Positions 113 through 64,000 of a DNA stretch of 64,000 nucleotides are shown here, one piece after another. A program made the position numbers and the translations under genes. How positions within the stretch are numbered: the first letter of the stretch is position 1; each line of letters begins with the position of its first letter. The DNA is from a virus. Lineage: Duplodnaviria; Heunggongvirae; Uroviricota; Caudoviricetes. The DNA lies in IMG/VR virus record IMGVR_UViG_3300031760_000016, positions 43,455-107,454 of that record; one strand, given 5' to 3'. The notes below the pieces were generated by a model that was not told the DNA's origin, searched no databases, and saw only the letters and a program-made list of their open reading frames with translations.

Positions 113-1747
113 TTGCCTGACAGTGTGACGGGAAATAGTAAGGCCGGCTGGCTGATAACGGTTATTCGCTCGGCCAGTACTGCAATGCAATGCTTTGTGC
201 CGCTCACGATAGTCGGCGTTGTTTACCAGCGCATTAAGCGTTCGTCAACCTGGGGAGCCTGGCAGACCTGTTCATTTGTGGATCGTGACAGCATCGGGAC
301 ATTGCATACATCCAAACCTTACGACATGTCCGATATACGTCTTTACGCGTCCGCGCTGTACAGAGCAAACCAGTATATCCCGGCTGCGGAAAGCTTTAAC
401 AGCTCAAAATGGGATAAATTTGTTATCACGGACGAAATTCAGAACATCGAGCAGAACGCATATAACATGTCCAGTCTGTCTATGTTTACCAGGATTGGCG
501 CGGTGGGTGACAGCTTTACGGCAGGTTACCTGTACAACAAGGAAACCGAAAGTCACCCGATCGAGCAGGATTATCCGCAGGACGGAGCTTACCCGCAGAT
601 CGGCTGGCCTGCTGTGATGTCGCGGCTTTACGGCATCAAGGTCACGCCGTTCGCCAAGCCAGGAGCGACAACCAAGAGTTATATCGACGACGTGCTACCG
701 TCATTGCTGAAAAGTGGAGGTCAGCAGCTTTACATGCTTTGCCTCGGTCTCAATGATTACACCAAGGGACTTAGCAAGGGCGTCGAGGCTGATCTTGACG
801 CAACAACGACGCCTGATACTTCGCTCGGTTATTACGGTTACATCATTCGCAGTATCAAAACAAAGTTCCCGAACGCGAAATTTGTGATTTGCAAATCGTT
901 CTGGGTGTTGCGCGCTGGGAACCACGAAACGCAGCCCTATACCGTGACTAGCTATTACACCTATATTTCGGAACTGGCTGAGACGATCGGTTCACACTTT
1001 GACATCCCGGTGATTGAGACGCTGGGAGATCCGTTCTTCTGTGGCAAGCCCTATGTGGATGGGCTGCATGGTTTTCATCCGACCGCACCGCTTTACGCGG
1101 GTATGGCACGCAGACTGGGACAGCTGCTTGACAAGTGTATCATTGATAATCCGCAGTATTTTTACAACTTTAGCACCAACACTTCTGTTGGAGAACCTGT
1201 GCTGTATACTGATAATCAGAGCCTCACGGACGCACAGAAAACACAGGCGAGAAACAATATTGGGGCAGCCAACAATGATGTGGTTGAAGACAAGATCACA
1301 AGCATGAAAGCTGCGATACTTGATAGCATCGATAAGGTGTCCTGGTCTGATGAAGACAGAGCAAATCACATTGAGGCACTTGAGGAAGCGTTGTTCGGCG
1401 AGAAGCATCAGCTTATTGATAGCGAACAGGTCATTACCCAGGAGGCAGGCTATGACATTGAAGAACTGAATACAGGCAAATGCATGCTTTCTTATGAAGT
1501 TGAGACAGATGCGGATATTGCAGATGATGTGAACAGCATCAAGATACAATTCAGTACCATGAATTGGGAGGATAGTGTGGAAGTATACGAGCAGATCAAA
1601 GGTAAGGCTGCCTCTGGGCGAATCACCGGACTGCGCGTACCGCACGATAATACTTTTGTCTCTGTGCATGTATTTGGCAATTCGGTCGCGTCCTACCCGA
1701 TCCGTATTAAGAAACTGACGCTGTATCATGAGGGCGAAAATTCCTAA
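113..1747 (+). CDS. Tail-associated SGNH/GDSL-family hydrolase (esterase/lipase-like)
   Basis: 544-aa ORF. GDSFTAGY block is the SGNH block I motif; later GLND and DGLH-like blocks fit the fold. Sits just upstream of giant tail fibre genes. Confidence 0.55.
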   Translation: MPDSVTGNSKAGWLITVIRSASTAMQCFVPLTIVGVVYQRIKRSSTWGAWQTCSFVDRDSIGTLHTSKPYDMSDIRLYASALYRANQYIPAAESFNSSKWDKFVITDEIQNIEQNAYNMSSLSMFTRIGAVGDSFTAGYLYNKETESHPIEQDYPQDGAYPQIGWPAVMSRLYGIKVTPFAKPGATTKSYIDDVLPSLLKSGGQQLYMLCLGLNDYTKGLSKGVEADLDATTTPDTSLGYYGYIIRSIKTKFPNAKFVICKSFWVLRAGNHETQPYTVTSYYTYISELAETIGSHFDIPVIETLGDPFFCGKPYVDGLHGFHPTAPLYAGMARRLGQLLDKCIIDNPQYFYNFSTNTSVGEPVLYTDNQSLTDAQKTQARNNIGAANNDVVEDKITSMKAAILDSIDKVSWSDEDRANHIEALEEALFGEKHQLIDSEQVITQEAGYDIEELNTGKCMLSYEVETDADIADDVNSIKIQFSTMNWEDSVEVYEQIKGKAASGRITGLRVPHDNTFVSVHVFGNSVASYPIRIKKLTLYHEGENS

Positions 1748-7398: not shown

Positions 7399-8505
7399 AT
7401 GACAGACTTTGTGAATACCAGAGAAGAAATGGGCGAAGCTGCAGCTCTCGATGCGGTGGTCGCCCGAACTCTGGCAGAGATAAAAGAGGATGGCGTCGCA
7501 AGTATTGGGTCTTATGCGCTATATAATAACCTCAGTCTGAAAAGGGTAAACTTTCCGGAGCTGACTGATATGGGCTCAGACGCCATGGAGGGGTGCACGA
7601 ACCTGGAGGTAGTTGATATCGGCAAGAAATGCACAATTGCTACGAAAGCTTTTAAGGGCAATTCGAGGCTGGCATCAATTATTTTGCGTGGGACGACAAT
7701 GAGCACACTCAGCAAAACTGATGCGCTGACTGGCGTGCCTATCAAATGGGGTATGGGTGGCGTGTACGTCCCGGCTGCTCTGCTCAATACATATAAAGCC
7801 GGTTCAAACTGGAGTGTGTATGCGGACAATATTTTCCCGATTGAGGATTATCCAAGAGCGGATTATAGTACCATCACTGATACATGGGAGCAGATTTTTG
7901 CCGCAGAGACCGATGGTACATATACGGGAAAGTATCATGTTGGTGACACCAAAACCTTAACTATGGGAAATAAGGTGGTTTATATGCAGGTCGCCGCGAT
8001 TGACGGAGACAATCTTGCTGATGGCTCTGGTAAGGCGAAAATAACATGGATCGCAAAGCATATTTACGATACACATGTAATATTGACGCCCCCATTTAAC
8101 GATGATAAAAGTTGGGCTAATTCTACGATGCGTTCGTATTTGATCAGTGATGTATTCACAGCGATACCAGCTGTCGTCCAGAATAATATCAAAGAGGTTG
8201 TGAAGACTTATTACGACAACAATTCGTCAAGCACGAAAACATCAAATGATAGGATCTGGATTCCATCTTATCGTGAGGTTATGCTTGGGACTGATAGAGA
8301 AGACAGCGGCGTGCAGTATTCTGCGTTATTCCCGGATAAATCATCACGAATCAAATACGACGCTGCTTCAGGAACTGCCGGAATATGGTGGCTTCGCACT
8401 GAACATCCTGGTATCAGTTATTATGAACATGTGCTAAGCACTGGAGGCAGTGGCTATGAGAGCGTCGGAGCTGCACAGGGCGTTGTTTTCGGTTTCTGCA
8501 CTTGA
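7399..8505 (+). CDS. Tail fibre-associated protein with BspA-type LRR and DUF6273-like C-terminal domain
   Basis: 368 aa. N-terminal LRR_5-like repeats resemble the C-terminus of the preceding gene. The C-terminus (WWLRTEHPG...) resembles a domain common in phage tail fibres. Confidence 0.5.
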   Translation: MTDFVNTREEMGEAAALDAVVARTLAEIKEDGVASIGSYALYNNLSLKRVNFPELTDMGSDAMEGCTNLEVVDIGKKCTIATKAFKGNSRLASIILRGTTMSTLSKTDALTGVPIKWGMGGVYVPAALLNTYKAGSNWSVYADNIFPIEDYPRADYSTITDTWEQIFAAETDGTYTGKYHVGDTKTLTMGNKVVYMQVAAIDGDNLADGSGKAKITWIAKHIYDTHVILTPPFNDDKSWANSTMRSYLISDVFTAIPAVVQNNIKEVVKTYYDNNSSSTKTSNDRIWIPSYREVMLGTDREDSGVQYSALFPDKSSRIKYDAASGTAGIWWLRTEHPGISYYEHVLSTGGSGYESVGAAQGVVFGFCT

Positions 8506-11958: not shown

Positions 11959-12128
11959 AACCTTAGCTTATGATACCAGAGCTCGTTCAGGGAGTGAAAG
12001 TGGAGGCTCTGAATGGGGTTAGCGCTTAGCCGTTGCCTGAATAGGGTCGCCGAAAAAGAAAAGCGTATATATGCACTGAGCAAGCGAAATTCATGAAAAT
12101 GGCATTCTACTTAACATTAAATTCGCCA

Positions 12129-12157
12129 TTGACATTTCGCATGCATTGGAGTATAAT
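12129..12157 (+). promoter_or_regulatory. Near-consensus sigma70 promoter (TTGACA - 17 nt - TATAAT) driving the ToxI-ToxN locus
   Basis: ttgaca at 12129-34 and tataat at 12152-57 with a 17-nt spacer, 25 nt upstream of the first repeat. Confidence 0.65.
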
Positions 12158-12182
12158 AGTCTTGTCGGAAGAGATTCCGATA

Positions 12183-12294
12183 GCGGTGCGCCACTACCAT
12201 ATAAGTGTGGACTCAAAAAAGCGGTGCGTCCCAACCATGATAGGGAACCGAAAAAAAGCGGTGCTCCCCAACCAATAATCGGGGATTAAAAACA
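12183..12294 (+). ncRNA. ToxI-like type III antitoxin RNA: about 2.8 tandem 37-38-nt repeats
   Basis: Units start GCGGTGC at 12183, 12221 and 12258. Each unit ends in an A-run and the middles have diverged. Spurious ORF 12093..12278 overlaps this region. Confidence 0.6.
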
Positions 12295-12319
12295 GGAGGC
12301 GTTATCGCCTCCATTTTTT
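12295..12319 (+). terminator. Rho-independent terminator between ToxI repeats and toxN
   Basis: ggaggcg-ttat-cgcctcc hairpin followed by tttttt. This is the layout seen in ToxIN-type loci. Confidence 0.6.
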
Positions 12320-12334
12320 ACAGGAGAGTATTGC

Positions 12335-12859
12335 ATGGATTTCTTCTACGTAAGCGATGAGTATATAACATTTTTGAAGCAATTTGATTCGACTGTGCCG
12401 AACAATTATGGTGGATCAAGACCATATATTGGCATTGTCATTGAAATTGATGAAATAAAATATTATGCTCCTCTCACATCTCCGAAACCAAAGCACTGCA
12501 AAATGAAAAATGATAAAGACTTTAGACGAATCGACGGTGGAAAGCTTGGTGCCATCAATTTCAACAATATGATACCAGTTCCGGACACGGCTATAATACC
12601 GATTATAATTAACGACGTGTCCGACGAGCAATATAAAAGATTGCTACAAAACCAATATGCATTTATCCAGAAGGATAAGGATGCAATTAAGCGAACTGCT
12701 ACAAATCTAAGAAGTCTCATTTTATCCTCTCCTGACGAACTGACGTCGCATGAAGAAGAAATAAAAAAGCGATCATGTAATCTGCCTGAGTTAGAAAGAG
12801 CTATGGAGGAATACATTTCTTCGAGTAAAAAGAATAGGGAGCCGCCTACAATTATGTAG
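12335..12859 (+). CDS. toxN: ToxN/AbiQ-family type III toxin (endoribonuclease)
   Basis: 174 aa. N-terminus MDFFYVSDEYITFLKQFDSTVPNN...RPYIGIVIEIDEIKYYAPLTSPKPKH parallels ToxN (MKFYTISSKYIEYLKEFD...FIGIV...YLAPLTSPK). RBS aggagag sits 6 nt before the ATG. Confidence 0.8.
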   Translation: MDFFYVSDEYITFLKQFDSTVPNNYGGSRPYIGIVIEIDEIKYYAPLTSPKPKHCKMKNDKDFRRIDGGKLGAINFNNMIPVPDTAIIPIIINDVSDEQYKRLLQNQYAFIQKDKDAIKRTATNLRSLILSSPDELTSHEEEIKKRSCNLPELERAMEEYISSSKKNREPPTIM

Positions 12860-13106
12860 ATGACTCCCTAATTTTTTAGCGAAGTGCCACAATTGAACAC
12901 GCCGCAACGAGCCGTGTATTCAATTCTGGTACCTCTGCTGGATAATAATTATGCATGCTGTGAAAAACGAATTTTGCTACCTTGTTTTTCGTTATCAACA
13001 CAAGATGTGGTGGGTTAGGACTCCTGATTGGTGCTATATATTGCGATATGAAGGTCTGCAAAACCTTCATTCTCCGGTCCGAATCCGGATGGCACCTCCA
13101 AACTTT

Positions 13107-13139
13107 GGGAGTTCTGTTGAAGCGGGGCTCCCTTTTTTT
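13107..13139 (+). terminator. Possible terminator at the convergent junction of plus- and minus-strand blocks
   Basis: gggag...ctccc stem followed by ttttttt (13133-13139). Confidence 0.35.
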
Positions 13140-13145
13140 GTGCAA

Positions 13146-14075
13146 TCAGCCGATGACGCTTCGCATCGCATCGAGCTCATTTCCGTATAAATGGATGTAT
13201 GTGTTGTATGTTATTGCAACATCTGCGTGTCCCAGCAGTTTTGACAAAATCTTAACATCACATCCGCGCTCGTAGCAGTTGGTGGCGAAGGTATGTCTGA
13301 ATGCGTGGAGACCTTTGTAATTTATAACCAAATGTTTACAAAGTGCCTTGACGTGGAACTCCACTGAGGAATAGCTGTATGGCATGGACGGGTCATCCTT
13401 TTTGGCAAAGATGTAACCAATCGTTCCTTTGATCTCCGCCAACTTCTTCAACACTGTCAGGGCGTTTTCGCTCAACGGGATCATCCGCTTGCTGGTTTTG
13501 CTCTTGGGTGTTTCCTGGACGTACGTCACAGTTTTGGTTGACATGCGGATGAGGGTGCGTCTGATCCGGACGGCTTTCCGGTTCCAGAGGACGTCCTCCC
13601 ACTTGAGCGCCAATGCTTCGCCGATCCTAAGGCCGGCTTCGAGCATGAGCACGACAACGCCATACTGCTCCTTTTCCAATGTCATGCATTTCTGCAGCAG
13701 CATCTTCTGTTCGAACTCCGTGTACGTTTCGATTTCCTTCTTTGGCTTCGCAATCGATTCTTCGATAGGCAGCTTTACGCCGAGGTATACCGGCGTGGGA
13801 ACCTGCCCCTGGCTCAGGGCGTGCTTCCAGTATGCGGTCAGAAGGTTGAACTGCTTTTTGACCGTGGACATCGAATACGAATCTTCCACGAGGCGAACAA
13901 GGTAGACCTGCATTTCATAGCAGCCGATGTCACAGACGTTCATTTCGGCGATGGCGTACTTGCACATCAGGTTGTAGGCGATCATCAGCCTGTCGAAGCT
14001 GAGAACCTTGACCGATTTTTTCTTGTACACATCGAGCCATTCTCTGACAGCGGTCTTTAATTGTCTTTCTTCCAT
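13146..14075 (-). CDS. int: Tyrosine site-specific integrase
   Basis: 309 aa. C-terminal HAFRHTFATNCYERGCDVKILSKLLGHADVAITYNTYIHL carries the R..H..R..Y catalytic signature. Confidence 0.85.
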   Translation of the reverse strand: MEERQLKTAVREWLDVYKKKSVKVLSFDRLMIAYNLMCKYAIAEMNVCDIGCYEMQVYLVRLVEDSYSMSTVKKQFNLLTAYWKHALSQGQVPTPVYLGVKLPIEESIAKPKKEIETYTEFEQKMLLQKCMTLEKEQYGVVVLMLEAGLRIGEALALKWEDVLWNRKAVRIRRTLIRMSTKTVTYVQETPKSKTSKRMIPLSENALTVLKKLAEIKGTIGYIFAKKDDPSMPYSYSSVEFHVKALCKHLVINYKGLHAFRHTFATNCYERGCDVKILSKLLGHADVAITYNTYIHLYGNELDAMRSVIG

Positions 14076-19772: not shown

Positions 19773-21278
19773 TCACTCGCATCGCGACCAGCCGCAGGAC
19801 TTGCAGACGTCGCAGCCGCCCTCATGGACGATCTCGTTCCCGCACTTTGGACACAGGTGCTTTTCGCCCTTTGCGGGCTTGACCGTATCTTCGTGAACAT
19901 GCGGCTTGTGAGGATCGCAAACCTCAGGGGTTTCAGGCGATCCGATCTCAGACTGCATTTCCGTCCACATATCCATGAGCGCGTTACCAATGGCTACGGG
20001 GCAGCATGAACCCTTGGACGTGTCGTGCTTGGTGGCGGAGCGCACAGCGTAAGAGGGGCAGACGCCGCAGCTGTGAAGCTGGTCTACGATGGCGAATATA
20101 TCGCACCCGGATCTGGCGGCGAGTGAAATCATCCGGCTGAGGCCGACCATGTAATTGTTGCAGCCGCCGGAGGATCCCTTGCTGAGATAGGTTTCCAGAA
20201 GGTCGCCGTTTTCCGGGTCAAAGAATGCAGTACAATGCAGAGATCCGCACCCCGTGGTGAGCTTGCGCTTCTTGCCGACCACATTATCGGACGATTCGAT
20301 GACCGCGCCGCGAGGGAGTACGTCGATCTCATTGAGTTTTTCGCTCTTGGGAGTGGGTTCTGGAGCTGGATTTTCCTCTTTCTTCGTCTCGGTCGTCAGT
20401 ATGCCGGCCCGGCGGCAACCGTTTCTGAAGACGGTGATGCCCTTCAGGCCATTTTCCCAGGCGTCGAAATAGATCTTTTCAACGTCTTCAACCGTCGCTT
20501 CGAACGGAAGGTTGACGGTAGAAGAAATTGAGGCGTCGATGTAGCGCTGCCATGCCGCCTGCATGAGCACGCGGTCGTGCGGAGCGATGTCCGCCGAGGT
20601 CACGAAGAAATCCGGAAGTTCAGAGTCGTCCTTGAGGTTGTGGGCTTCCATGTAGGTTTTTACAATGGGAGTGTAAACCTTGTACTCCTTCGCCTCTTCG
20701 TACAGGCTTTCAGTTTTACGGGTGTAGAAGTTGGCAAAGATGGGCTCCAGGCCACCCGACACGCCGATCATCGTTGACAGGGTGCCGGTGGGCGCGATCG
20801 TCAAGAGCTGGCTGTTTCTCAGGCCATACTCATGTATGTATTTTTTGTTGTCTTCGGAGATATTCAGGGAGTAGAACGGTGACTTCGCAAGTTTTTGCTC
20901 GTCGTACATGGGGAACGGGTCGTCCTGCGCTGCGAGATTTGCCGAAGCATATACAGCGGAATTGAGGATGGTGTCGGCAACCGAACGGCAAATATCAATG
21001 GATTCAGGGCTGCCATACCTCACGCCCATTTTGATGAGCATGTCGGCAACGCCCATGACGCCGAGGCCGATCTGTCTCCAGTCCCTCACGCTGTCGCGCT
21101 GCTCCTGCAGCGGGTGGAGGGGAAGACCCTCATCGAGTACGTCGTTCAGGGCTACAGTCGCGATGAATGCGGCCTCGCCGAGTTCTTCAAAGTCAAGGTT
21201 GCCGTTTGAGTCAACAAATTCGGCGAGATTCAAACTACCGAGCAGGCAGCTCCCGCCGGGCGGCAACGGTTCCTCTGC
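19773..21278 (-). CDS. nrdJ: Class II (B12-dependent, NrdJ-like) ribonucleotide reductase, exon 2
   Basis: Begins AEEPLPPGGSCLLGSLNL, the RNR active-site loop following NPC. Contains TIAPTGTLS and a C-terminal 4-Cys ribbon (CPKCG...CDVCKSCG). No small subunit nearby. The ORF-track start at 21281 is an artificial TTG. Confidence 0.7.
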   Translation of the reverse strand, partial: AEEPLPPGGSCLLGSLNLAEFVDSNGNLDFEELGEAAFIATVALNDVLDEGLPLHPLQEQRDSVRDWRQIGLGVMGVADMLIKMGVRYGSPESIDICRSVADTILNSAVYASANLAAQDDPFPMYDEQKLAKSPFYSLNISEDNKKYIHEYGLRNSQLLTIAPTGTLSTMIGVSGGLEPIFANFYTRKTESLYEEAKEYKVYTPIVKTYMEAHNLKDDSELPDFFVTSADIAPHDRVLMQAAWQRYIDASISSTVNLPFEATVEDVEKIYFDAWENGLKGITVFRNGCRRAGILTTETKKEENPAPEPTPKSEKLNEIDVLPRGAVIESSDNVVGKKRKLTTGCGSLHCTAFFDPENGDLLETYLSKGSSGGCNNYMVGLSRMISLAARSGCDIFAIVDQLHSCGVCPSYAVRSATKHDTSKGSCCPVAIGNALMDMWTEMQSEIGSPETPEVCDPHKPHVHEDTVKPAKGEKHLCPKCGNEIVHEGGCDVCKSCGWSRCE

Positions 21279-22164
21279 CAAAGAGGTATTTAGACTATAT
21301 CTTCACCCTACGCACACATCTGTAGGGGGTTCGCACTCTTCAAATCGACCTGTATAGACCATAATTCATCGGACATCCATGCCGGTTGGCATTCATATCC
21401 GAGGTAAGCCTTATACAGCATTGAAGGGACGAGATAGGGGATGATCAAACTGAAGAAAATGTTGTAGCTCTCCTTCTTGATTCTGAGCCTTGTGAATTTC
21501 CCGCGCTTGACCAATGAGGTTTTGATGTCATAGTTTTCCAGAAGAGCATCCTGAATGGTCTTGATGTCGTCGTATGTATATCGGTCTGTGCAGAAATCAA
21601 CGCGCCTGTCGGTGATTGTACCTTTACTCCGTCCGACCAGGCAGACGTAACCGTCTGACATGTACCAGTTTGCCAGACCGTACGGCGTGAGCCAGTCGAG
21701 CGCTTCCCGGGTGATTATTCTGTGGCGGTAATCATCATAGAAGTTGTTGTATATTTTGGTAAAATACGGATGGGCGAGTATTATGTATTCCCAGTTCTCC
21801 TGATGATTGCACCAGCCTGAATAATGCTCCGGCGTGTAAATGACTTTGGATTTAAAACCCGAGCAGCTTTCGATTTCCTCTGCGATATTATTGATGAAGT
21901 CCTGATGAATGCTCTTGATTCTGAATGCCCGCTTATGGACACCCTTGTCTATCATCCCGTCACCGAGTATTAGTCCTGTTAAGAACCCTCTTAACTCTGA
22001 ACTGTTCATATGTTATAGCCCCCTATAACTGTTTTTTCGATTTGATTTTAGTCGTTGAACCTTCCTCATATTTCTGAGGCTTGGCTGCTGATTGCCTTTC
22101 GGTTTCCAGCAATTCGCGAACGATTGTTTTCATGAGATTGCTCTCAAGCCCTGCGCAAAAGTTC
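21279..22164 (-). mobile_element. Group I intron in nrdJ carrying a LAGLIDADG homing endonuclease ORF
   Basis: Exon 1 stops reading 5 codons after NPC; exon 2 resumes in frame after a G. Minus strand shows Q-like AAUCAGCAGCCAAGCC, R-like AAGGUUCAACGACUAA and, near the 3' end, S-like GAAGAUAUAGUC. The HEG ORF sits between them. Confidence 0.7.
21308..22009 (-). CDS. LAGLIDADG-family homing endonuclease (intron-encoded)
   Basis: 233 aa. GFLTGLILGDGMIDKG is a LAGLIDADG motif. Own start and stop inside the intron. Confidence 0.6.
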   Translation of the reverse strand: MNSSELRGFLTGLILGDGMIDKGVHKRAFRIKSIHQDFINNIAEEIESCSGFKSKVIYTPEHYSGWCNHQENWEYIILAHPYFTKIYNNFYDDYRHRIITREALDWLTPYGLANWYMSDGYVCLVGRSKGTITDRRVDFCTDRYTYDDIKTIQDALLENYDIKTSLVKRGKFTRLRIKKESYNIFFSLIIPYLVPSMLYKAYLGYECQPAWMSDELWSIQVDLKSANPLQMCA

Positions 22165-22971
22165 ACAGGGATTTGTGCCAGCGTATTCAAAGTTCTCATA
22201 TTCACTCAGCAGGTTCCAGCTGGAGATCATGTCCCAGAACAGCATTCCGGGTTCTCCCATGTCCCAGTTGTTCTCCGCGATGTGATGGAACAGCTGCCTT
22301 GCGTTTACGGTTTTGCGAATGGTTTCGCCGGTTTCGGAGCGCGTGAACCTGAGTTCAAACGGCTCATCGTTTTCCACGGCCTGCATGAATTCATCGGACA
22401 TGCGGACGGAAATGTTGGCTTTGGTGACGCGATCGAGATCCTTCTTGATGTCCACGAATTCCTCGATGTCCGGGTGATCACAGCTCAGAGAGAGCATCAG
22501 CGCACCGCGCCGGCCATTCTGGGAAATCAGCCCGGTAACCATGGAATACAGATCCATGAACGACACCGCGCCGGAACTCGCCTTTGCCGCGTTTCTCACG
22601 ACCGCGCCCCTGGGTGCCAGCTTTGACAGGTCAGTGCCGCATCCTCCGCCGTACGAATACGTGCGAGCCAGCTTCTTGGCGCAATCAAAGATGGATTCGA
22701 GGTTGTCCTCAGGAGGCGTGACGACATAGCAGTTACTATAGCTGATTTTCTTTCCTTCTTTTGTGAGTCCGCGGTTGGCGAGGATGCGCCCTCCAAACAG
22801 GAATTTCTTTTCCAGAATCAGGCGTTTGACCTGAGGGTCATTACCGCTCACTCTGGTCACCCATTCCAGAAAGCTTTCGCCATCATTGCGGTATTTCTGC
22901 TCCCAGATGTTTATGCCGATCTGATTATCAGCGCCGAGCCAATCCTGTACCGTCATTTCTCTGGCATCCAA
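22165..22971 (-). CDS. nrdJ: Class II ribonucleotide reductase, exon 1
   Basis: Blocks IWEQKY...LEWVTRVS, SNCYVV and GGGCGTDLSKLAPRGA; ends ...YAGTNPC at the intron insertion point. Confidence 0.7.
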
Positions 22972-29206: not shown

Positions 29207-29527
29207 TTAGTAGGGCTCAAAGGGGCTGTGTTGCGTTGCCTCCTCGTACAGAATCTTGTCGCCTTGGAAGTTCACGTCTATGTACTCGCCCTCGTTCATT
29301 TGCGGTCCGTTGCGGTTGAATCGAACGAACAGCTTTTTGTTTCCGCAGACAGTCCCGTCTCGCTGAATCTCTTCTGGGGACTTGTCCTGAATCATGATGA
29401 TTGTGCTCGCATTTCTGGCAATCTTGGCGCTGTCCGCGAGGCGGCCTGTTGAGGTGGCCTGCGCCGCGCCGATGCCGGCGATGTTGAGTTCACCACACAA
29501 TTTGTTCTTGACCGTCAGTGTGTTCAT
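29207..29527 (-). CDS. dnaB: Replicative helicase DnaB, exon 2 (C-terminal segment)
   Basis: 106 aa. LCGELNIAGIGAAQ ~ LAKELNVPVIALSQ; GRLADSAKIARNAS ~ SDLRESGSIEQDAD; VRFNRNGP ~ AKQRNGP in E. coli DnaB. The 5' boundary is approximate. Confidence 0.6.
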   Translation of the reverse strand: MNTLTVKNKLCGELNIAGIGAAQATSTGRLADSAKIARNASTIIMIQDKSPEEIQRDGTVCGNKKLFVRFNRNGPQMNEGEYIDVNFQGDKILYEEATQHSPFEPY

Positions 29528-29791
29528 CTGCTTTCACAGATGCCTGGACTATATCATCGCTGCTTTCAGCGCCGACCGCTTAGTCTCTGAACCTTCCCCT
29601 GTTCGGGGCTTGGCTGCTGATTGCCCATTGAATCGCGCTTAGGATTTGACCGTACGCTATCCCGTGAATTCTTTCCGCTTTCGCCGCCTTCGCGCTCACA
29701 ACTTTCGCTGTCACGCTTTGGCTTCACGGGCTTTAGGGTTTTCCAGCAATTCGATCGGTTTTTCACGGCATTGCTACCGTGGGACTGGCCA
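29528..29791 (-). mobile_element. HEG-less group I intron splitting dnaB
   Basis: About 264 nt between the two DnaB exon ORFs. Minus strand carries Q-like GGGCAAUCAGCAGCCAAGCC, R-like AAGGUUCAGAGACUAA and S-like GAUGAUAUAGUCC. It shares 19-nt and 16-nt blocks with the nrdJ intron. Exact splice junctions are not determined. Confidence 0.6.
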
Positions 29792-30832
29792 TCAATCCAC
29801 GATTGAACCTAGGGAGGAGTACACGGCGTAGGCGTCCATATCGGACCCCGTGCCCTTGAAGTAATCGATGATCAGGACGTCAATGCCCTGCGTGTGAAAG
29901 ACGCGCTTGACGTTTGTGTACATCGTGCTTTCATCGAAGATCGGCATGTACAGATGCGTAAAGCTCTGCTGTTTCAGCCATGCGATCGCCTCGCTGATTT
30001 TCGCGGCTTCCGCGTCGTCATATCTGCCGGATCGCAGACGTTGAAACTCGATTCCCGTCAGATGGGAAATCATACGACATGTGAAAAGCTTGCTGTTCAG
30101 TTCGCTGTCGATATAAAAAACCTTGCGGCCGGCGCGGAGAAGATCCACCGCGCAATTGAGCAGCATCATTGACTTGCCTTGCTTCTGTTCAGCACCGAAA
30201 ATGATGAGCTCGCCGCGCTCGATCATCACGTAGTTGTTCAGCGTCGGAAATTTGAACGGGAAAACCGCTGCCATGTCGGGATTCTGCCGGGCTTCGATTT
30301 CCGTCCAGTACTTCTCGATCACGTCTTTGTACTGCGGAATCTCGTTCGTTGTGGAAAACTCCATGATGACGTTGTCGAGCAGCGACGTGATCTGCTGTTC
30401 AATGTTGCTGCATTCGGAGTTAAAGCAGATGTTCTCGCACTCCACGAGCCTTTGGTAAGTGTGCCTCCTGAACGCCGCATCGATCACGGCGTTCGCGACC
30501 ATCATATAATCCTCCGGCTCGCTTCTGGCGATCAGCGACGCGTTGTCGAAGAGTTCCTGAAGCGACTGGTTGGTGATGATCGAGTTGACGTTCTCGCTCA
30601 CGTGCTCGGTGCCGCGTTTCATGTTGAGAAAGTTGATGATGTTGTAGGCGTCGATCTGCTCGATGCCCTTCTTGGCGAGTTCGCAGACGGCGTAGTAGAT
30701 GTAGGCGTTCTGCGGATTGGTAAAGTAGTTCGGTTTGAGTTGTTCTGAATGGAATGTCAGTTCCGGCGTCATGACCACCGAGGCGATTACGCCCGCCTCG
30801 GCTTCGACATTCTTGATGTCACCTACTGTCAA
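29792..30832 (-). CDS. dnaB: Replicative helicase DnaB, exon 1 (N-terminal domain + Walker A/B)
   Basis: 346 aa. GELIIFGAEQKQGKSMML (Walker A) and VLIIDYFKG (H2). The ORF terminates where DnaB should continue; the rest is in ORF 29207..29527. Confidence 0.7.
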   Translation of the reverse strand: MTVGDIKNVEAEAGVIASVVMTPELTFHSEQLKPNYFTNPQNAYIYYAVCELAKKGIEQIDAYNIINFLNMKRGTEHVSENVNSIITNQSLQELFDNASLIARSEPEDYMMVANAVIDAAFRRHTYQRLVECENICFNSECSNIEQQITSLLDNVIMEFSTTNEIPQYKDVIEKYWTEIEARQNPDMAAVFPFKFPTLNNYVMIERGELIIFGAEQKQGKSMMLLNCAVDLLRAGRKVFYIDSELNSKLFTCRMISHLTGIEFQRLRSGRYDDAEAAKISEAIAWLKQQSFTHLYMPIFDESTMYTNVKRVFHTQGIDVLIIDYFKGTGSDMDAYAVYSSLGSIVD

Positions 30833-43062: not shown

Positions 43063-43625
43063 TACAAGTACCCCTTAGTCAATAATATGCCTATGATGTA
43101 ACTATTCTATTACGCTTCTGGCTGTTTGTCAACCGCCTTGCTTTTGTAGTGCTCCTTGGTTATGTCAGCCATGGCGTGGTATGAAGCTTCTACGCCTTCC
43201 TTCCAGCCCCTATCATAATCCCCGAAGTACTTTGAAGCGGCGTTCCAGCCCTCCGTCCAGCCCTGCGACCACGGGCTGCCTTCGCGGTATTGCGTGAAAC
43301 ATATGACGATGCCTGCCGAGATAGCTCCGCCCGCGAAGCAGATGAAATTCAGCATTGCCCCTGACATGACCACCCGTCCTTTACCGGTTCAAAGGTGTAG
43401 ATCGAGTTCAGAGTGTGAACTACGACGGAATCAGCGGACATGTCGAATTCCGTCACGGTCGAGGTGCTCATCCAGCCATCGTTGGGCGTGCCGTCCGCGT
43501 TCTCATAATACTGGACGACCAGCCGTCGTTTAGTATGCACACCGAGTGGAAACCAACAGACGCGGCCGATCCTCATGGGATAGCGGCCGTCATCCCTGTC
43601 GTAGCCATCGAGATCCGTGATGGAT

Positions 43626-48950: not shown

Positions 48951-49475
48951 CGATAGTTTTGTTGTCTCCTTGCATAAATATAGAATCTGACAGCACCCCT
49001 GAAACAGCGGATGTCTCCGGCGTTTCAGCTATGCTCTAAACGCAGAATTTCGATTTTACCTTGACTTTACATTGAAAAACCTCCTTCGCTGAGTCGAAAA
49101 GCTGGCCTGTCGCGGCACCTGCACAGCGGAACATTCTTGAGTGATGAATGCGGAGCTGTGTACATCAGGGAGGTTAAAAGGAACCGTAGGTTCCTTTGAA
49201 AACCCTGACTATGCGTCACTCCGGTGAAGCACGCAGAGCTGCGTCTCAGAGGATATGTACTGATCCGCAAATGTTCGTGCCGCGACCTGCCGTGTCTGTC
49301 ATCTGCGTTTACCAGGGCTTTGAACCTGCTGCATTGTCCCGGGAATGCAGGCCGCATTACAGATTGCGGATGGGGAAGGGGAAAACCATCCGCAAAATGC
49401 CAGCTGGTCTGGAAACCTGATCACACGCCAGATGGAACGCTGTGAAGGCTTGGCGCATGTACCAGGGTGGAAAAG

Positions 49476-51956: not shown

Positions 51957-53102
51957 TCAGGACTGTTCCTCAGATCTCAGCACGCTGCGGATCATCTTCA
52001 TGACGTTGACCCCGTGCTTTTCGTTAAACCACTTGATGAACTCCTCGACGTACTTCTTTTCGACCATCTTGTAGTAGCTGATCTGGCCGGAAAGCACATA
52101 GACGTCGTGGATATCCCACTTATCACCGCTCTGGTAATCCCTTATGAAGCTGGTGAGCGCCGCCTTGAGCTGGAGCTTCTTCTTGCGGCCGATGGTGATC
52201 TGATTGTCCCTGTTGAGCATGACGCCCAGATTCCAGTTCCTTCCGGCGCTGGATCCGTAGCGCGTCTTTTCGTCCTTCAGCTGGAACGGGGCGTTGAAGC
52301 TTGCCAGAACGGAATTGATATAGTCGCACATCTCCTTCGGATCGAAATCCTGCCTGTGCGAAAGCTGGATGTCATCGGCATACCGGGTGTAGACAAAACC
52401 CTTCTTGACCACGTCATTCATGATGCGGTGGTCGATGGGAACCATCATCAGGTTTGTCAGGGTGGGGGAGATCGGCGTTCCCTGCGGAAGCCCGCCGTCG
52501 AGGAAACACAGGCTCAGGGCTTTGGCAAGTTCATCCCTGCCGCCGGGAGCTTTGACGACTTCGCTGAACGGGAAGATGCGGGAAACCATATCGAACAGGA
52601 ATTCCTCAGTGGTGCTGCCGAAGAAATTGGAGAAATCCGTTTTCAGGAACCACCGGCTTTTGTTCTGCTGGTGGCGCTTGATGGCGTCGATGGTACTGCG
52701 CCCCTTGACGTAGGCGAAAGCCGCCGTGTGATACAGCGCACCGAAGTTGTTTTCCAGAATCGTGCGGAGCGTGCGCAGAGCGCCCATCAGTTCCGGCAGC
52801 GGTTCATCGATCTTGCGGTAACCCTTGGTGCGCTTGGGGATGTAAAACGTGTGGTAGAGCGAATGGCGATCCTTTTCAAACAGAAAAGCATAGGACGTAT
52901 TGAACGTGTGCAGAAGGCTGATGAGACCGGGGACGTTGAGATTGCGGGTGTAAGCCGGGCTGACCCAGTTCACCAGATGAGTCACCGTGCCGGTGATCTG
53001 GTGCTTGGGCGTGTCCCAGCCAAGCGGAACCCTGCCGAGAAGCACATCCTCAAACGAAAGCTGATGTGTTCTCGGCGTTTGCATGACGGTGATGTACGGC
53101 AT
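51957..53102 (-). CDS. Reverse transcriptase (retron/defense-RT-like, no maturase or endonuclease domain)
   Basis: RT motifs FLKTDFSNFFGS (motif 2), GLPQGTPISPTLTNL (motif 4), VYTRYADDIQL (YADD, motif 5), NLGV...ITIGRKKK (motifs 6-7). Start set to the ATG at 53102 with AAAGGAG 6 nt upstream; the ORF-track TTG start is at 53129. Confidence 0.75.
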   Translation of the reverse strand: MPYITVMQTPRTHQLSFEDVLLGRVPLGWDTPKHQITGTVTHLVNWVSPAYTRNLNVPGLISLLHTFNTSYAFLFEKDRHSLYHTFYIPKRTKGYRKIDEPLPELMGALRTLRTILENNFGALYHTAAFAYVKGRSTIDAIKRHQQNKSRWFLKTDFSNFFGSTTEEFLFDMVSRIFPFSEVVKAPGGRDELAKALSLCFLDGGLPQGTPISPTLTNLMMVPIDHRIMNDVVKKGFVYTRYADDIQLSHRQDFDPKEMCDYINSVLASFNAPFQLKDEKTRYGSSAGRNWNLGVMLNRDNQITIGRKKKLQLKAALTSFIRDYQSGDKWDIHDVYVLSGQISYYKMVEKKYVEEFIKWFNEKHGVNVMKMIRSVLRSEEQS

Positions 53103-53262
53103 ACGAACTCCTTTCTGATTGATCTGCAATCTGAATGCAGTGCGCGGTCTTCAGGGTAACCAGGAAGAGCTGAGGGATGTGATGATTGGGAGTCGAAACC
53201 CTGCCTGCTGAATCTCGCCGACTGCTGATGTGTCGGGAAAATGCGATCTTTTTCGACCTGTT

Positions 53263-53450
53263 GGAGCTTGGATGACCTAGAAGTGGTGGCTTTCAAGCTC
53301 GGACCGGTCGTCGCCGGATCAGCACCTGGGAGGAGAGCTCGATCGGCCGCCTTCCGCCGGCTGCCGCGGGTCGCCCCGTCTTCCCGACAATTTGTTACTC
53401 CGGATGTGATCACAGAGCATTGGGAAACCCAATAATGCATTGCAGACTTG
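53263..53450 (-). repeat. Non-coding element B, within the structured leader upstream of the RT
   Basis: Paralog of element A. Followed on the minus strand by hairpins, e.g. GCCCGCC-GGAA-GGCGGGC at 53450-53467 and AUUGGG-UUU-CCCAAU. Confidence 0.6.
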
Positions 53451-53472: not shown

Positions 53473-54237
53473 TCACATTTGAATCATGGACCGGAACAGT
53501 TCCAGAAGACCTTCGTGCTCATGGGTTTTTGAGGTTTCCAGACACCAGATGTGCTCGCCGGAATCAATTTCGATCACAGGGGCGTCCGGCTTGATGCGAA
53601 TCATGGGGTGGATGAGAAACACATCCCGGCACAAACCATGTGTCATGGAGCCAAAGTTGTATATGAGGATATGCCCTGCGTCCGAAACCCCGGTTCGAGT
53701 CATGATGTTCGAGTGGGGAACTTCGCCGATGGCCTGACTGAGCGCCGGGAGATACTCACCGTCCGGAACCTCGGGTACATCCACAAGCTCAGACTCGCTG
53801 GGGATCGAAACCTTGCAGGTGACCGTCTGCGCCCTGCCAAATTCCTTAATACTTCCGGGCGGAACGGCGATCGGAACCTCTCGGTCGATCAGCATGGCCA
53901 GCTCTTCGTCGTCAAAGAAGGTAAGGAAGCCGTCATACACGCCGTCCGGGCATCTGTCATACTGATGCATCGGAGTGTATGTAAAATCCTTGCCGCCGTT
54001 CAGCCACTGGAAGAGGTTGGAATGGGGAAAGTAGTTGTTGCCATAAGCGCGTTTTGCGGAAGACGGGCTTTCGAATTCGCGCCTGTCGAAGGAACGCCTG
54101 CCGACAGACCTCATGGCGAAAAGGTCATTGGAATCGGAAACCTTTTTCCAGAGAATGTCATCGTTGTTATCACCCAGATTGACGCCGATGTTCAGCTTGG
54201 TTCCCAGCGGCAGTTCACTGATCGTCAATATGCTCAC
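53473..54237 (-). CDS. Hypothetical protein
   Basis: 254 aa, no recognisable motif. Lies between the E1-like gene and the RT leader. Confidence 0.45.
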   Translation of the reverse strand: MSILTISELPLGTKLNIGVNLGDNNDDILWKKVSDSNDLFAMRSVGRRSFDRREFESPSSAKRAYGNNYFPHSNLFQWLNGGKDFTYTPMHQYDRCPDGVYDGFLTFFDDEELAMLIDREVPIAVPPGSIKEFGRAQTVTCKVSIPSESELVDVPEVPDGEYLPALSQAIGEVPHSNIMTRTGVSDAGHILIYNFGSMTHGLCRDVFLIHPMIRIKPDAPVIEIDSGEHIWCLETSKTHEHEGLLELFRSMIQM

Positions 54238-58060: not shown

Positions 58061-58893
58061 TTCGTTTTTGGATTTGGAAACAGATTGGAAACCCGGATTC
58101 TCAGACCGTCGGTGCTCTTACTCTTTTCATTGGAATTCCCTTCCTTTCTGGCGATTGACTCGCGCCCTTCAATTCGTACCGCATTTCTCAGCCGCATTTC
58201 TGCGTTGCCCGCTCTGAACCACGTGGAGGTGAATGCTTTTCTACTTCTCAGAGCATTTGGGCAGCGTTTCCCACGCGCTGCCCTGAAAGGAGGAGACCAT
58301 GAAGAATTTCATTTTAATTTCAAAATCCGTTTGCCGCTTAAAGCGTTGCCCGCCCTGAACCGCGTGGAGGTTGGATTACTCAGGGCATTTAGGCGGCGTC
58401 CCCGCAAACGCCGCCCAGGAACGAGGGGGAAAGGAGGAACCCCCTGTCCCTTAGTTGTAAGTGTCGAAGATGGAAGGTACCATGATCTCGGTCCCATCCG
58501 AAATGGGAATCATGGTCGGACGGTAGATCGTGATTCCGTGCTCATGCAGGATGTCTTCGATCTGATCCTCAATGGCTTCCAGAGTTTTAGTGTCTATGCC
58601 GATGTCTTCCAGTGAAATGTCATCTGGCTCGACACCGATCAACCTGCAGATGAATTCGTGGGTGTACTGGTCGATGTCGTCCTGCCGGCGGATGACCTCT
58701 TCGTAGTCATCCGAATTCTCGGCCATATTGAATTCCTCTTCATCATCCTCGATCTCGATGGTGAGAGAATCCGCGTCGATCACCGGCTCAGAAACCGGTG
58801 GGGGAGTGTTGCCAGTGTAGGCAACGATCGTTTTTTCCTTCAAAAGACGGCACCTCCGCTATGTAATCACAACCGGATTGAAAACCGGCGCTG

Positions 58894-60971: not shown

Positions 60972-61404
60972 TCGGAATTGAAACCGATTCTGATTTCGAT
61001 TCCGGGACGGCTGCCAATGACGTCATCCATGGTCGCCATCACCAGCTTATGGGCTTCTGCGATCGCGCACCGATCGCATTCGATATGCATGCCCCGCATG
61101 CAGCAGATGTTGCAGGAATTGCTGAAACTCTTTTCAGCCTGAAACCTCGTGGAGGCTTCGATTTGGCGATTCACGCCAATCTGTTCGAATTTGGTCATGA
61201 TATTATTACCTCACTATCGCGGCTACAATGACGGAACCGAAGATGATTATGATTGTCCCCATGGCCGCAATCAGATTAGGAATGAAAACCTTGATCGCAT
61301 TAGCGGTCATATGTACCGAACACTTAAAAACCCGGATAACCTTGGCACGCTGTCTTCTGCGTTGAGCGGCCTGCCTGCGCTCAAGGTACGTCACTCCATC
61401 ACCT

Positions 61405-62200
61405 CCAAATCCAAATCAGATTCGATTCCAGACCTTCAGATGCCCATGGCGAGCATCGTGAAAGCCCTTCTGCCGCGGTGCCAGACTTCGACGTCCAAAC
61501 CGCTTTTGTACCAGCGCATCGCTACGCTGCGAGACTTCGTGGTTTCCTGAGTCTCGCAGTTCACGTAGAAACTGCCTTTCAGGATCAAGTCGAAAAACCT
61601 CCATTCATTTTGGATTTCAAACCCTTGACTCTGCGTTTACACGGGCTTGTCACCGTCAGAGGCCGCATTAAGGGAGGCGCAGTCAATGTCAAGTAGTCGG
61701 CCAAATGCTTTGTACAGACGCTGCGCCCAGCCGTCTGGACAGTTCTTTGACCCGCGTGGATTATGCACCAACACGCTGGTGCTCGCGGAGAGTTTGAGTA
61801 TCACCACCTTAAAAACCCAAATTGGATTCAATTCCAGATCCTCAGGTGTGCCCGCTTTTTCTGGGACACCCAGCCCAAGAGCCTGAGCCGCTCTCGCTCT
61901 TTGCTCCACCGGAACTTTGGCCTACCCGATGGCATAGGCGAAAAACCCAAATCAGATTCGATTCCAGACCCTCAGCAGAACGACCATACACCGAGATCGG
62001 TATTGCGACTGAGCTGCACAGATCCGTCAGTTGCAGACAGGACATCGTGGATCCCAGCGTAATCGGGATTGCTGTCGATCTTGGTGGCCAGTTCGGCCTT
62101 TTCACACAGGGTCAGTTCGTGGGTGACCCAGATGATTCCATCAGTGAACATTTTCCACCTCGCTTGATTCAGATTCAATTCCAGACCCTCACGGTCTGGA
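61405..62200 (-). repeat. Four dispersed copies of a ~35-nt motif (minus strand CTGAGGGTCTGGAATCGAATCTGATTTGGGTTTTT) in a ~900-nt region without credible genes
   Basis: Cores at 61417-61434, 61821-61838, 61953-61970 and 62170-62187. The listed ORFs across them are translations of the repeat (ELNPIWVF / ESNLIWVF). Confidence 0.7.
61622..61672. repeat. Element X (ccttgactctgcgtt...ggcttgtcacc...gccgcattaagg), paralog of 63731..63792
   Basis: Three conserved blocks shared with the second copy. Confidence 0.6.
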
Positions 62201-62296
62201 GCCTACCAGCATCGCAGACAGAGCTCACAAGACTTTGCATCTATTGACTCTTTGGCTCAGATGTGATGCTGGCGGGCATTCTGGGCAGATGCCGCG

Positions 62297-63163
62297 TTAC
62301 GCGGCGGTTTCTTCAGCAGGCTGTTCCTTGGTGACCACGATGGTCTCGGTCGCAGCCTCAGCGGGGGCAACCTCAGGCTTCTTCGCCTTCTTGGCAGCCT
62401 TCTCGCCATCGGGCTTGACCATCTTGTAATCGACGGAATACACCAGATCGTTCGTGAGACGGTAGAGGACTTCGGCAACCAGCCGGGTGACGGTGCTGGT
62501 ATTGGCAACCTTCAGGGTCAGCTTCTGGCTGCCGCGGCGGGTGTAGGAGTAAAGCAGATACTTCACGTCGAAGTTGTTGATCTTGTAGACGTTCTTGCCA
62601 TTGCCATCGTCCACGAACAGGATGGAGTCGATGACAGTCTGGAGCAGCTTGGTCATCTGCGAGTTGGAGACGGGAGTTCCGCCCATATCCAGCTCACGGG
62701 CCTTGTCGGACATGCGGTAGGTGGTGGCAACCTTCTGGGCAACTTCCTTGCCCGAGTGACCGAGATCGTCATGGATGCGGATGCAGAGCAGCTCACCCAT
62801 CTTTTCGACCTTGTACTTCCAGAGGGTGTCCTTCTGAAAGAACTTGAACAGAGCGGCCAGGTCGATCTGCTTCTCAGCATCCTCGACCAGTTCCATACCG
62901 AGGATGACGTCGCCGTCACGGTTGATCTTGTGGCGGAGAACCGGGAACCAGCCGCGCTTGATGCCCGCGAGAATCGGGTTCTCAGCGTCGCGGCACTCGC
63001 CGAAGGTATCCAGCTGGGACTGCTGAGCGTATTCCTTCTCAGCGTCCTTGACAGCACTTTCGGCCTTGTTGATGGCTTCGAGGTTCTTGTCATTTACGGC
63101 CTTGTTGTAGGCCGCGATTGCGGCGACAACCTTCGCCTTAGCTTCCATACCGAGTTTCGTCAT
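62297..63163 (-). CDS. Hypothetical protein with Lys/Ala/Pro/Glu-rich histone-H1-like tail
   Basis: Start set to the ATG at 63163 (RBS AAGGGGG). C-terminus KPDGEKAAKKAKKPEVAPAEAATE is low complexity. Confidence 0.45.
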   Translation of the reverse strand: MTKLGMEAKAKVVAAIAAYNKAVNDKNLEAINKAESAVKDAEKEYAQQSQLDTFGECRDAENPILAGIKRGWFPVLRHKINRDGDVILGMELVEDAEKQIDLAALFKFFQKDTLWKYKVEKMGELLCIRIHDDLGHSGKEVAQKVATTYRMSDKARELDMGGTPVSNSQMTKLLQTVIDSILFVDDGNGKNVYKINNFDVKYLLYSYTRRGSQKLTLKVANTSTVTRLVAEVLYRLTNDLVYSVDYKMVKPDGEKAAKKAKKPEVAPAEAATETIVVTKEQPAEETAA

Positions 63164-63730
63164 GAGAAATACCCCCTTTTTATTGTTCTGCCGTTCAGTC
63201 GAAGACGTCCACACCACGGGAAGGCGGCAGAATCGTGGACATTAACGGCGCGAGCAGTCGAATGACCAGCCCGCGCCGCGTTTTATGTTATTCTGCACTT
63301 TGGCAAATTGCCGCCATGCAAGGTTGTATTACTCACACATCAATTCACAGTCGCTTCATGACACCTAGCAGAATCACCCTTACCCGCTTGGAGCTCGGGC
63401 AATTATCCCAGACTTGATACGATCTCATCACTTTTCATGCTTCATTCTATCAGTGCCCACTTGGAGCGTACTGAGTAAGCGAAATCCACACGAGGGTGCA
63501 TTAGTGCCAATCCACTTCAATGATTGACATATCCTTCACCTTCCGCAAGCCACGTTTAGAGGGGTGAAGCTACCCTGTTGCCGCAATCTACTATCCGGCA
63601 CGCCAGCCGTCTACACCAGCTGACGCCATAGGACGTACCATGAGACCAGAATGCCCCATTTGGGAACACCCCAGTACTTCAATCGACCTATGGAACCGAC
63701 GACCTGCCTTGTGTCATTAGGTTGCAGGTA

Positions 63731-63792
63731 CCTTGACTCTGCGTTAGGGGCTTGTCACCCGCCAGCGTTGTTCACACTGGGCCGCATTAAGG
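63731..63792. repeat. Element Y, second copy of the X element, immediately preceding the terminal tandem array
   Basis: Same three blocks in the same order. Confidence 0.6.
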
Positions 63793-63808
63793 TGGATTTT
63801 TCCTCTGG

Positions 63809-64000
63809 CTGCGGGGGGCGTTGCCGTCCGTCCGTTCTTTGTGCGGGGGGCGTTGCCGTCCGTCCGTTCTTTGTGCGGGGGGCGTTGCCGTCCGTCCGTT
63901 CTTTGTGCGGGGGGCGTTGCCGTCCGTCCGTTCTTTGTGCGGGGGGCGTTGCCGTCCGTCCGTTCTTTGTGCGGGGGGCGTTGCCGTCCGTCCGTTCTTT
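63809..64000. repeat. Perfect 32-nt tandem repeat (GTGCGGGGGGCGTTGCCGTCCGTCCGTTCTTT), 6 units, truncated by the window edge
   Basis: Units at 63809 (first 2 nt differ), 63841, 63873, 63905, 63937 and 63969. All others are identical. Confidence 0.9.

Follow-up and report, generated by a model that had tools for sequence, protein, structure and literature searches.

A perfect 32-nt tandem array ahead of a predicted twister ribozyme in a large phage with SPbeta-like genes: a possible expanded binding-site array

The DNA stretch analysed here (hereafter the window) is 64,000 nt long, comes from a Caudoviricetes phage (IMG/VR record IMGVR_UViG_3300031760_000016, positions 43,455 to 107,454 of that record) and ends inside a tandem array of perfect 32-nt units. 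Next to this array lies one of two similar ~60-nt elements, named X and Y in an initial annotation of the same DNA, and the main fact missed by that annotation is that both elements read, on the opposite strand, as predicted twister self-cleaving ribozymes, so that the array would be transcribed and then severed from the RNA downstream of it. The reading that we favour, to which we give a probability of roughly 35%, is that slippage has expanded the array into a set of DNA sites for an adjacent putative helix-turn-helix (HTH) protein, with read-through producing the array RNA and the twister cutting it off the early mRNA. As far as could be found, the combination of a terminator, an expandable array, a twister and a long structured leader has not been described before. 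The elements at the centre of this analysis are the following:

63810 to 64000, minus strand: tandem array of perfect 32-nt units, at least six (Tandem Repeats Finder, TRF; pattern search with shuffles; same array in contigs L001, L002, L003 and L008)
63731 to 63793, minus strand: predicted twister ribozyme Y, type P1, with P3 (Rfam RF03160, 35.5 bits, E=2e-5; covariation)
61623 to 61674, minus strand: predicted twister ribozyme X, type P1, without the optional P3 (Rfam RF03160, 50 bits, E=1e-9)
49295 to 49363, minus strand: predicted third twister ribozyme, with T1 pseudoknot UCA:UGA (Rfam RF03160, 59.1 bits)

X and Y are paralogs, as the initial annotation had proposed. They and the 49.3-kb copy (50.0, 35.5 and 59.1 bits, respectively) all score below the RF03160 gathering threshold of 67.2 bits, plausibly because their variant T1 triplets are counted as mismatches by the covariance model: the family consensus is CCC:GGG, whereas X and Y have GAC:GUC, the third copy has UCA:UGA, and orthologous ribozymes of related phages have CAC:GUG and CGG:CCG. 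When seven copies are aligned, the full structure with both pseudoknots has 95.9% of its cells paired, against 73% after shuffling and 18-44% with slid partners, and 14 of the 23 pairs show double-sided changes. All three T1 pairs are changed on both sides and yet 100% paired, in four versions, and T2 is likewise 100% paired; among the helices, pairing reaches 100% in P2, 100% in P3 (with 7/7 pairs covarying), 95% in P4 and 81% in P1. The P1-type arrangement of P1, P2 and P4, with P3 optional, is present in the cmscan alignments, and the double pseudoknot (T1/T2, between L4 and L1/L2) in the seven-copy alignment, whose invariant columns are TAATGCGGC, GGT, AAG, CC and AACGCAGA, the U-A cleavage step included. 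These copies thus share with the type-P1 twisters of RF03160 the helices, both pseudoknots, the U-A step and the invariant UAAUGCGGC...GGU...AAGCC...AACGCAGA core, and differ from them in T1 and in their scores (35-59 bits). The assignment of X, Y and the 49.3-kb copy to the twister-P1 class, with variant T1 pairs and predicted catalysis, is therefore well supported by the alignments.

Twister ribozymes cleave at the U-A step of loop L1 (PMC6154101). In Y, the predicted cleavage is ACCUU^AAUGCGG on the minus strand, between 63789 and 63788 and thus 21 nt downstream of the array, and in X it falls between 61670 and 61669. The biological roles of bacterial and phage twisters are still undetermined according to the review literature (PMC6765202).

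The array itself is as the initial annotation described it, with identical units that run to the window end and beyond: TRF reports for 63810-64000 a period of 32, 6.0 copies, 100% matches and a score of 382, with the unit TGCGGGGGGCGTTGCCGTCCGTCCGTTCTTTG (on the minus, or sense, strand GGCAACGCCCCCCGCACAAAGAACGGACGGAC, where T is absent). The exclusion of a CRISPR array also stands, the period being equal to the unit length and the units lying head to tail with no spacers. With up to 3 mismatches allowed, the pattern search found no further copy of the unit in the window, and shuffled sequences yielded none. A coding reading was rejected, because 3 does not divide the period and because a stop codon and a terminator precede the array. 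A G6 or C6 run occurs just once per 32 nt, so that a G-quadruplex or i-motif would need 26-nt loops.

The identical unit is found in Joint Genome Institute (JGI) contigs of two samples (L001/L006, L003 and L008) and in a MEGAHIT contig from ENA (L002), and, being present in several samples and with several assemblers, the array is genuine. A pure assembly artefact, the possibility on which the initial annotation had asked for long-read support, is ruled out for its existence by these independent assemblies, although not for its exact length: short reads cannot fix the length, the six copies in the window are a lower bound, and de Bruijn-graph collapse could account for part of the perfect identity between units. 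Contig L002, reached by looking up contigs with an exact copy of the 288-aa protein encoded at 62297-63163, matches the window at 100% identity for 11.6 kb and crosses the array with 4.5 copies (144 nt, which barely exceeds the k of 141 used in its assembly), while four other contigs stop within it: at the contig ends the array is 159 nt long in L003 and 99 nt in L001/L006, and L008 starts inside it with at least 3 units. By coordinate arithmetic, a 116,091-nt ENA contig of the same phage also ends within the array (at about window position 63937), and the JGI contigs of one sample (50,233, 10,595 and 49,967 nt, retrieved in part and placed against the window from coordinates) make up ~111 kb of the ~116-kb genome. 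As L002 continues through the array and the contigs give a near-complete genome, the window edge marks the place where assembly broke at a repeat exceeding k, rather than a demonstrated terminus. Inspection of the sequence past 64000, which the initial annotation had advised, leads along L002 from the array to a terminator, an Ala-rich gene and an integrase-like recombinase gene, so that its suggestion of a genome terminus finds no support here. The array explains why assemblies of these ~116-kb phages always break at one place, and the resulting "terminal repeat" should not be taken as a true genome end.

All credible genes in the last 50 kb of the window are on the minus strand, and the locus is for this reason read in that orientation. 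The order is then the gene for the Ala-rich putative HTH protein, a terminator, the array (starting ~10 nt past the terminator T-run), 16 nt of spacer, twister Y, a leader of ~570 nt and the gene for a 288-aa protein, followed by small minus-strand genes without assigned function that we group under the name early operon. Besides the array and the ribozyme, the locus comprises:

L002 2206 to 4443, plus strand of L002, beyond the window end: gene for an Ala/Arg/Asp-rich, highly repetitive protein of 745 aa, in a very GC-rich, T-poor island
63164 to 63730, minus strand: conserved noncoding leader, from twister Y to the 288-aa gene (4-lineage alignment)
62297 to 63163, minus strand: gene for a 288-aa protein with a Lys/Ala/Pro/Glu-rich tail, the first gene downstream (list of open reading frames)

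The terminator on the far side of the array in L002 is strong and intrinsic (12-bp stem, T8 run), and the 745-aa gene lies between it and a gene for a 272-aa tyrosine recombinase, which is divergent, has a strong sigma-70 promoter and, by eye, keeps the catalytic residues R..HxxR..H..Y. Homologs of the Ala-rich protein are 356-798 aa long, and the sole segment strongly conserved in all of them (...MTPKQR..YA..SMR...G.KNQSTVARHI...) resembles an HTH of the sigma-region-4/LuxR type. In the L012 homolog, HTH_38, Sigma70_r4_2 and ECF-sigma were matched below threshold in Pfam, together with a PHROG sigma-factor match; the profile of the protein gave nothing significant against the PDB. The motif CAGGACGG occurs six times just upstream of the 745-aa gene (L002 2040-2140).

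The initial annotation had advised searching related phages for the unit, and a megablast of window positions 61000-64000 against 50,697 phage records gave no match, and INPHARED has no close relative; direct repeats in the corresponding place were found in metagenome-derived lineages, which were reached via homologs of the 288-aa and Ala-rich proteins and have the same gene order. In this order the YonO-like gene, a small gene, the YonV_C gene and the recombinase gene are on one strand, and the Ala-rich gene, the terminator, the repeats, one or more twisters, a leader of ~500 nt and the homolog of the 288-aa gene are on the other. Direct repeats straight after the terminator of the orthologous gene are seen in six lineages, including that of the window:

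Window: 32-nt unit, at least 6 copies
L028: 32-nt unit GGCAACGCCCGCCGCACAAGGAACGGCAGGAC, at least 2.7 copies, at a scaffold end
L009: 30-nt unit GGCAACAGCCGCCGCCCGAAAGACGACGAC, 1.5 copies
L026: 57-nt unit with GGCAACGCCCGCCGCC, at least 2.4 copies, at the end of a 116,052-nt SPAdes contig
L012: 78-nt unit, broken by a 100-N scaffold gap
L015: 78-nt unit, at a contig end

The core GGCAACGCC is common to four lineages, with GGCAAC[GA][CG]CC[CG]CCGC at the unit start, and the junction of TTTTGGCAA with the terminator is kept in four lineages. From these alignments, the position of the repeat is conserved and its core is under sequence constraint, with period and copy number free to vary, and the window array, with at least six perfect copies, would be a lineage-specific expansion of what L009 has as 1.5 copies. 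This fixed architecture (terminator, expandable array, twister, long leader and early gene) in at least six lineages makes one role of phage twisters directly testable. Other searches were less productive: related loci were not found with the 288-aa and 493-aa proteins as queries, and with an alignment one relative was found (L015); the 21-nt core of the unit, searched in genome and metagenome contigs, matched this phage and three single chance sites, with no host genome or prophage among them; and a two-core tandem pattern matched L001 alone among viral contigs. L027 was discarded as a further contig ending at this site, because its end is Illumina adapter sequence (AGATCGGAAGAGCGTCGTGTAGGGAAAGAGTGT at 5383-5429 of ENA contig k141_1368263, a contamination in a public assembly), and L029 (P0004) was too short and too divergent for comparison. 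L009 also has, between its repeats and the earlier of its two twisters, a small open reading frame (889-966, plus strand) that encodes a hydrophobic peptide of 25 aa and has a good ribosome-binding site (RBS); the window phage lacks it.

The same comparison bears on the possibility that the array is a neutral minisatellite, a slippage-prone stretch of GC-rich, T-poor spacer beside a highly repetitive gene, without function and with no effect other than breaking assemblies. We regard this as possible, if on balance doubtful. It would account for the perfectly identical copies and for a copy number and period that vary between lineages, short tandem repeats of like composition also abound in the gene beside the array, and the unit resembles sequence near the terminator in L012. 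It would not account for direct repeats at the same position in six lineages, nor for the TTTTGGCAA-terminator junction conserved in four of them, and the L028 and window units are identical at 27 of 32 positions (84%) where the adjacent recombinase proteins are only 59% identical. The core also recurs upstream of the HTH gene: its octamer CGGCAACG lies in the intergenic region before that gene in 4/5 lineages, on either strand.

In the expanded binding-site reading, the unit would have multiplied by replication slippage from an ancestral direct repeat of ~1.5 copies, a state that L009 still shows with its homologous 30-nt unit. The conserved core GGCAACGCC(S)CC would be a DNA recognition site, its likeliest binder being the HTH protein encoded immediately upstream, and the array would act as an expandable operator, roadblock or centromere-like platform between a regulatory module and the early operon. 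That the core is recognised on DNA is suggested by its recurrence upstream of the HTH gene on either strand and by the HTH-like protein encoded next door. A motif in the upstream region of the regulator itself, as expected of a binding-site array, is thus found in both orientations, with CGGCAACG present in 5 copies in 5 regions against 0.14 expected (five were reached in 0/2000 first-order Markov simulations), numbers that are to be read with the motif having been picked after inspection of the data, with L027 and L028 not being independent and with L026 having no upstream copy. The array would be transcribed by read-through of the terminator, because there is no sigma-70 promoter between the terminator and the ribozyme, and transcription of the array is itself suggested by the ribozyme, which is useful only with RNA upstream of it. 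Cleavage by the twister 21 nt downstream would then strip off the array RNA and leave the early mRNA with a fixed, ribozyme-capped 5'-OH end at any array length. Among the functions that the initial annotation had proposed, a protein-binding array is the best-supported guess; the HTH assignment of the candidate binder is below curated thresholds.

Several further points weigh against this reading. The units are not palindromic and the periods of 30, 32, 57 and 78 bp share no helical phase. Perfect identity and a variable period would also be expected of a neutral minisatellite, and GC-rich expansions may simply come easily to this region, whose sense strand, like the Ala-rich gene upstream, has no T. 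Additionally, only in this phage are array and twister as close as 16 nt; in the relatives 100-230 nt separate them.

Arrays flanking the gene of their own binder are known, such as sopC of the F plasmid (43 bp x 12, downstream of sopB) or the incC-repA-incA iterons of P1. As in these systems, the gene for a putative DNA-binding protein is immediately followed here by a near-perfect array and has copies of the core in its upstream region. The present locus differs from them in having no partition NTPase (no ParA, ParM or TubZ was found among the neighbours) and no recognisable Rep-type initiator, in an array that lies within a transcription unit and is followed by a ribozyme, in a period that varies among relatives and in a binder that is putative. 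If the array served as a platform to which the unusual Ala-rich HTH protein binds, or as a decoy RNA (see below), it would represent a new regulatory or anti-defence module in metagenome-recovered phages with SPbeta-like genes.

In another explanation, each unit is a promoter (GGCAAC-N17-CGxx) of the extracytoplasmic function (ECF) type used by a phage sigma-like protein, and the twister trims the heterogeneous 5' ends as an insulator. GGCAAC-N17-CGGA and GGCAAC-N17-CGAC can be read off the window and L009 sequences, respectively, the protein encoded upstream has weak matches to ECF sigma region 4, and no sigma-70 promoter is available. Sigma region 2 was however not detected, CG-containing '-10' matches are expected by chance in GC-rich DNA and the 78-nt units fit poorly, which makes this explanation very unlikely. 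The insulating function recalls RiboJ, a synthetic-biology ribozyme insulator that gives mRNAs a fixed 5' end despite variable upstream sequence. In both cases a self-cleaving ribozyme stands between variable upstream sequence and an mRNA; here the ribozyme is natural, of the twister class and ahead of a 570-nt structured leader, and the effect is a predicted one.

Given that the array would be transcribed, it may also act as RNA. Read-through and twister cleavage would in this case release a U-free, unstructured multi-repeat decoy or sponge, directed at a host type III toxin (of the ToxN, CptN or AbiQ class, as a pseudo-antitoxin) or at a GGA-binding protein such as CsrA, with the repeat number expanding under selection. 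Consistent with this, cleavage would fall 21 nt past the end of the array, the array RNA in sense orientation lacks structure (z = +0.69) and contains ACGGA twice in each unit, and the phage group is at home in type III toxin-antitoxin territory, with a toxIN locus of its own. (The antisense array RNA folds strongly, with z = -2.7, each unit resembling a weak terminator on that strand.) The repeats of type III antitoxins are roughly 34-45 nt long, and the 57- and 78-nt units of the relatives fall outside this range; moreover, there is neither a promoter before the array nor a toxin gene after it, its unit does not resemble the 37-nt toxI repeats of the phage itself, the repeats of the relatives are not adjacent to the twister, and the core is also found on the opposite strand upstream of the HTH gene, which favours recognition of DNA. 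There is nevertheless a phage precedent for such an expansion, in that escape phages of PhiTE grew a 36-nt pseudo-ToxI from 1.5 to 4.5 or 5.5 copies (PMC3475682), to be compared with 1.5 copies in L009 and at least six in the window. The likeness to ToxI and pseudo-ToxI (PMC3475682) lies in transcribed tandem near-identical units of ~32-37 nt and in a documented phage expansion from 1.5 to ~5; the array differs in lacking its own promoter, a terminator and toxin gene after it and any similarity to the toxI of the phage (12182-12292), and in the far longer units of the relatives. On this evidence we consider an action as RNA unlikely. The stricter version, in which a discrete U-free repeat RNA is the functional product and a decoy against a host RNA-targeting defence or regulator (CptN, ToxN or a GGA-binding protein), expanded by slippage in an arms race, seems quite unlikely; if true, it would be the first case of a natural self-cleaving ribozyme maturing an anti-defence repeat RNA.

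The toxIN locus is a canonical and complete type III toxin-antitoxin system, located in a 40%-GC island (12130-12859, plus strand). It has a TTGACA-17-TATAAT promoter, three imperfect 37-nt ToxI-like repeats (12182-12292) with covarying stems, a terminator and toxN (12335-12859; PF13958, E=1.6e-48). The drum motif is often found near self-cleaving ribozymes, and a weak match to 'drum' RNA (35.2 bits, below the gathering threshold of 43) lies just upstream of the toxI promoter (11965-12070, plus strand).

A last explanation takes the array as a packaging start (a pac site bound by the small terminase) or as a replication origin with iterons, the contigs ending there partly since the virion DNA does so. 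In SPbeta, yonR encodes an HTH regulator and yonP adjoins the yonO RNA-polymerase gene. A preprint on SPbeta-like phages (bioRxiv 10.1101/2021.11.22.469490) places the genome opening point between the neighbouring genes yonR and yonP and separately names yonO among the conserved SPbeta genes. The locus resembles this region in having an HTH gene (adjacent) and a YonO-type polymerase gene within a few kb of the array; the array is also near the divergence point of two large transcription arms, and contigs of six lineages end or have a gap at it. The synteny is however loose, and the passages of that preprint that were consulted mention no tandem array for the pac site of SPbeta. The array is spanned by L002, and a repeat longer than k is enough to explain the contig ends. 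No recognisable initiator or terminase gene is nearby, nor were Rep, DnaA or helicase-loader domains found among the neighbours (which are largely unannotatable), and the array has no AT-rich flank (the last 1 kb of the window is 55% G+C) and L002 no TTATCCACA DnaA box at up to 1 mismatch. Perfect arrays with periods of 30-78 nt are not known from pac sites or iterons, which are shorter and imperfect. We consequently hold a packaging or origin function to be improbable, and the iteron block suggested by the initial annotation finds no support.

Downstream of twister Y, the leader has counterparts of ~500-570 nt in three of the relatives (L009 1241-1736, L012 9429-10000 and L015 376-875). Its core reads GGUGUAGACGGYUGGCGUGCCRGAUAGU...GGCAACAGG, with GUAGACG...GGCAA.AG invariant, and in the alignment of 4 lineages RNAalifold predicts hairpins with compensatory changes (81 pairs, 36 of them double-changed). 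There was no match in Rfam at E<=10, and a degenerate pattern built on its conserved sequence matched nothing beyond chance sites in unrelated coding sequence. The leader may be a new structured RNA or a regulatory 5' untranslated region (UTR). A sigma-70-like promoter between the terminator and the 288-aa gene was found in none of the lineages, and L012 has a strong promoter upstream of its HTH gene. The 288-aa protein belongs to a very small family (4 homologs) with no Pfam or PHROG match. Its AlphaFold2 model is poor (predicted local distance difference test score, pLDDT, of 63) and Foldseek found no PDB fold match at E<=0.001, so that the protein gives no clue to a role as initiator or binder.

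Further into the early operon, four ~33-nt elements (61407-61439, 61813-61845, 61943-61975 and 62160-62192; sense CTGAGGGTCTGGAATCGAATCTGATTTGG...) end at the RBSs of small early genes. Three of these copies match a 22-nt pattern, against 0.01 expected, and they may be 5'-UTR or promoter elements. Matches to a second class of ribozyme, of the hepatitis delta virus (HDV) type (Rfam HDV-F-prausnitzii), are present on the minus strand at 58179-58254 and 58323-58386 of the window, with 43.3 and 39 bits against a gathering threshold of 44, and at L009 8346-8419 and L012 13650-13717 (45.9 bits in L012). Their position upstream of a 205-aa gene is conserved, and one of those in L009 comes after a tRNA.

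The phage as a whole is large (~116 kb), temperate, from gut or rumen, and has several SPbeta-like genes, namely those for a YonO-type RNA polymerase, YonV_C and DnaE and an intron-split ribonucleotide reductase (RNR) gene. In the window are encoded a DnaE-type polymerase, an RNR, an endolysin with PG_binding and SH3 domains, BspA-LRR proteins, a reverse transcriptase and six tRNAs, together with two group I introns; Pfam searches with eight L001 and two L012 open reading frames past the recombinase matched a holin only. The YonO-type single-subunit RNA polymerase (L001 3260-6666, minus strand; L012 1527-4199, minus strand; also L026-L028) adjoins the YonV_C protein, matches Pfam RdRP PF05183 in the relatives and has a GMDKDGD motif. 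Four group I introns are on the minus strand (window 29525-29804 and 21269-22174; L001 3941-4267 and 5218-5529); one splits the RNR gene region, and two are between open reading frames that look like exons of a YonO-type polymerase of ~890 aa.

A tRNA-Cys directly adjoins the gene for a 309-aa tyrosine integrase (window 13030-14075), a pair that is likely to be the attP module, so that, with the 272-aa recombinase beyond the array, the phage has two tyrosine recombinases. Finally, an RVT_1 reverse transcriptase adjoins DUF6273 proteins (window 51957-53129 and 53473-54237, both minus strand), a further LRR_5+DUF6273 protein is encoded at 7399-8505 (plus strand), and the set is probably a diversity-generating retroelement; a JGI contig break lies near this region, at about window position 53375.

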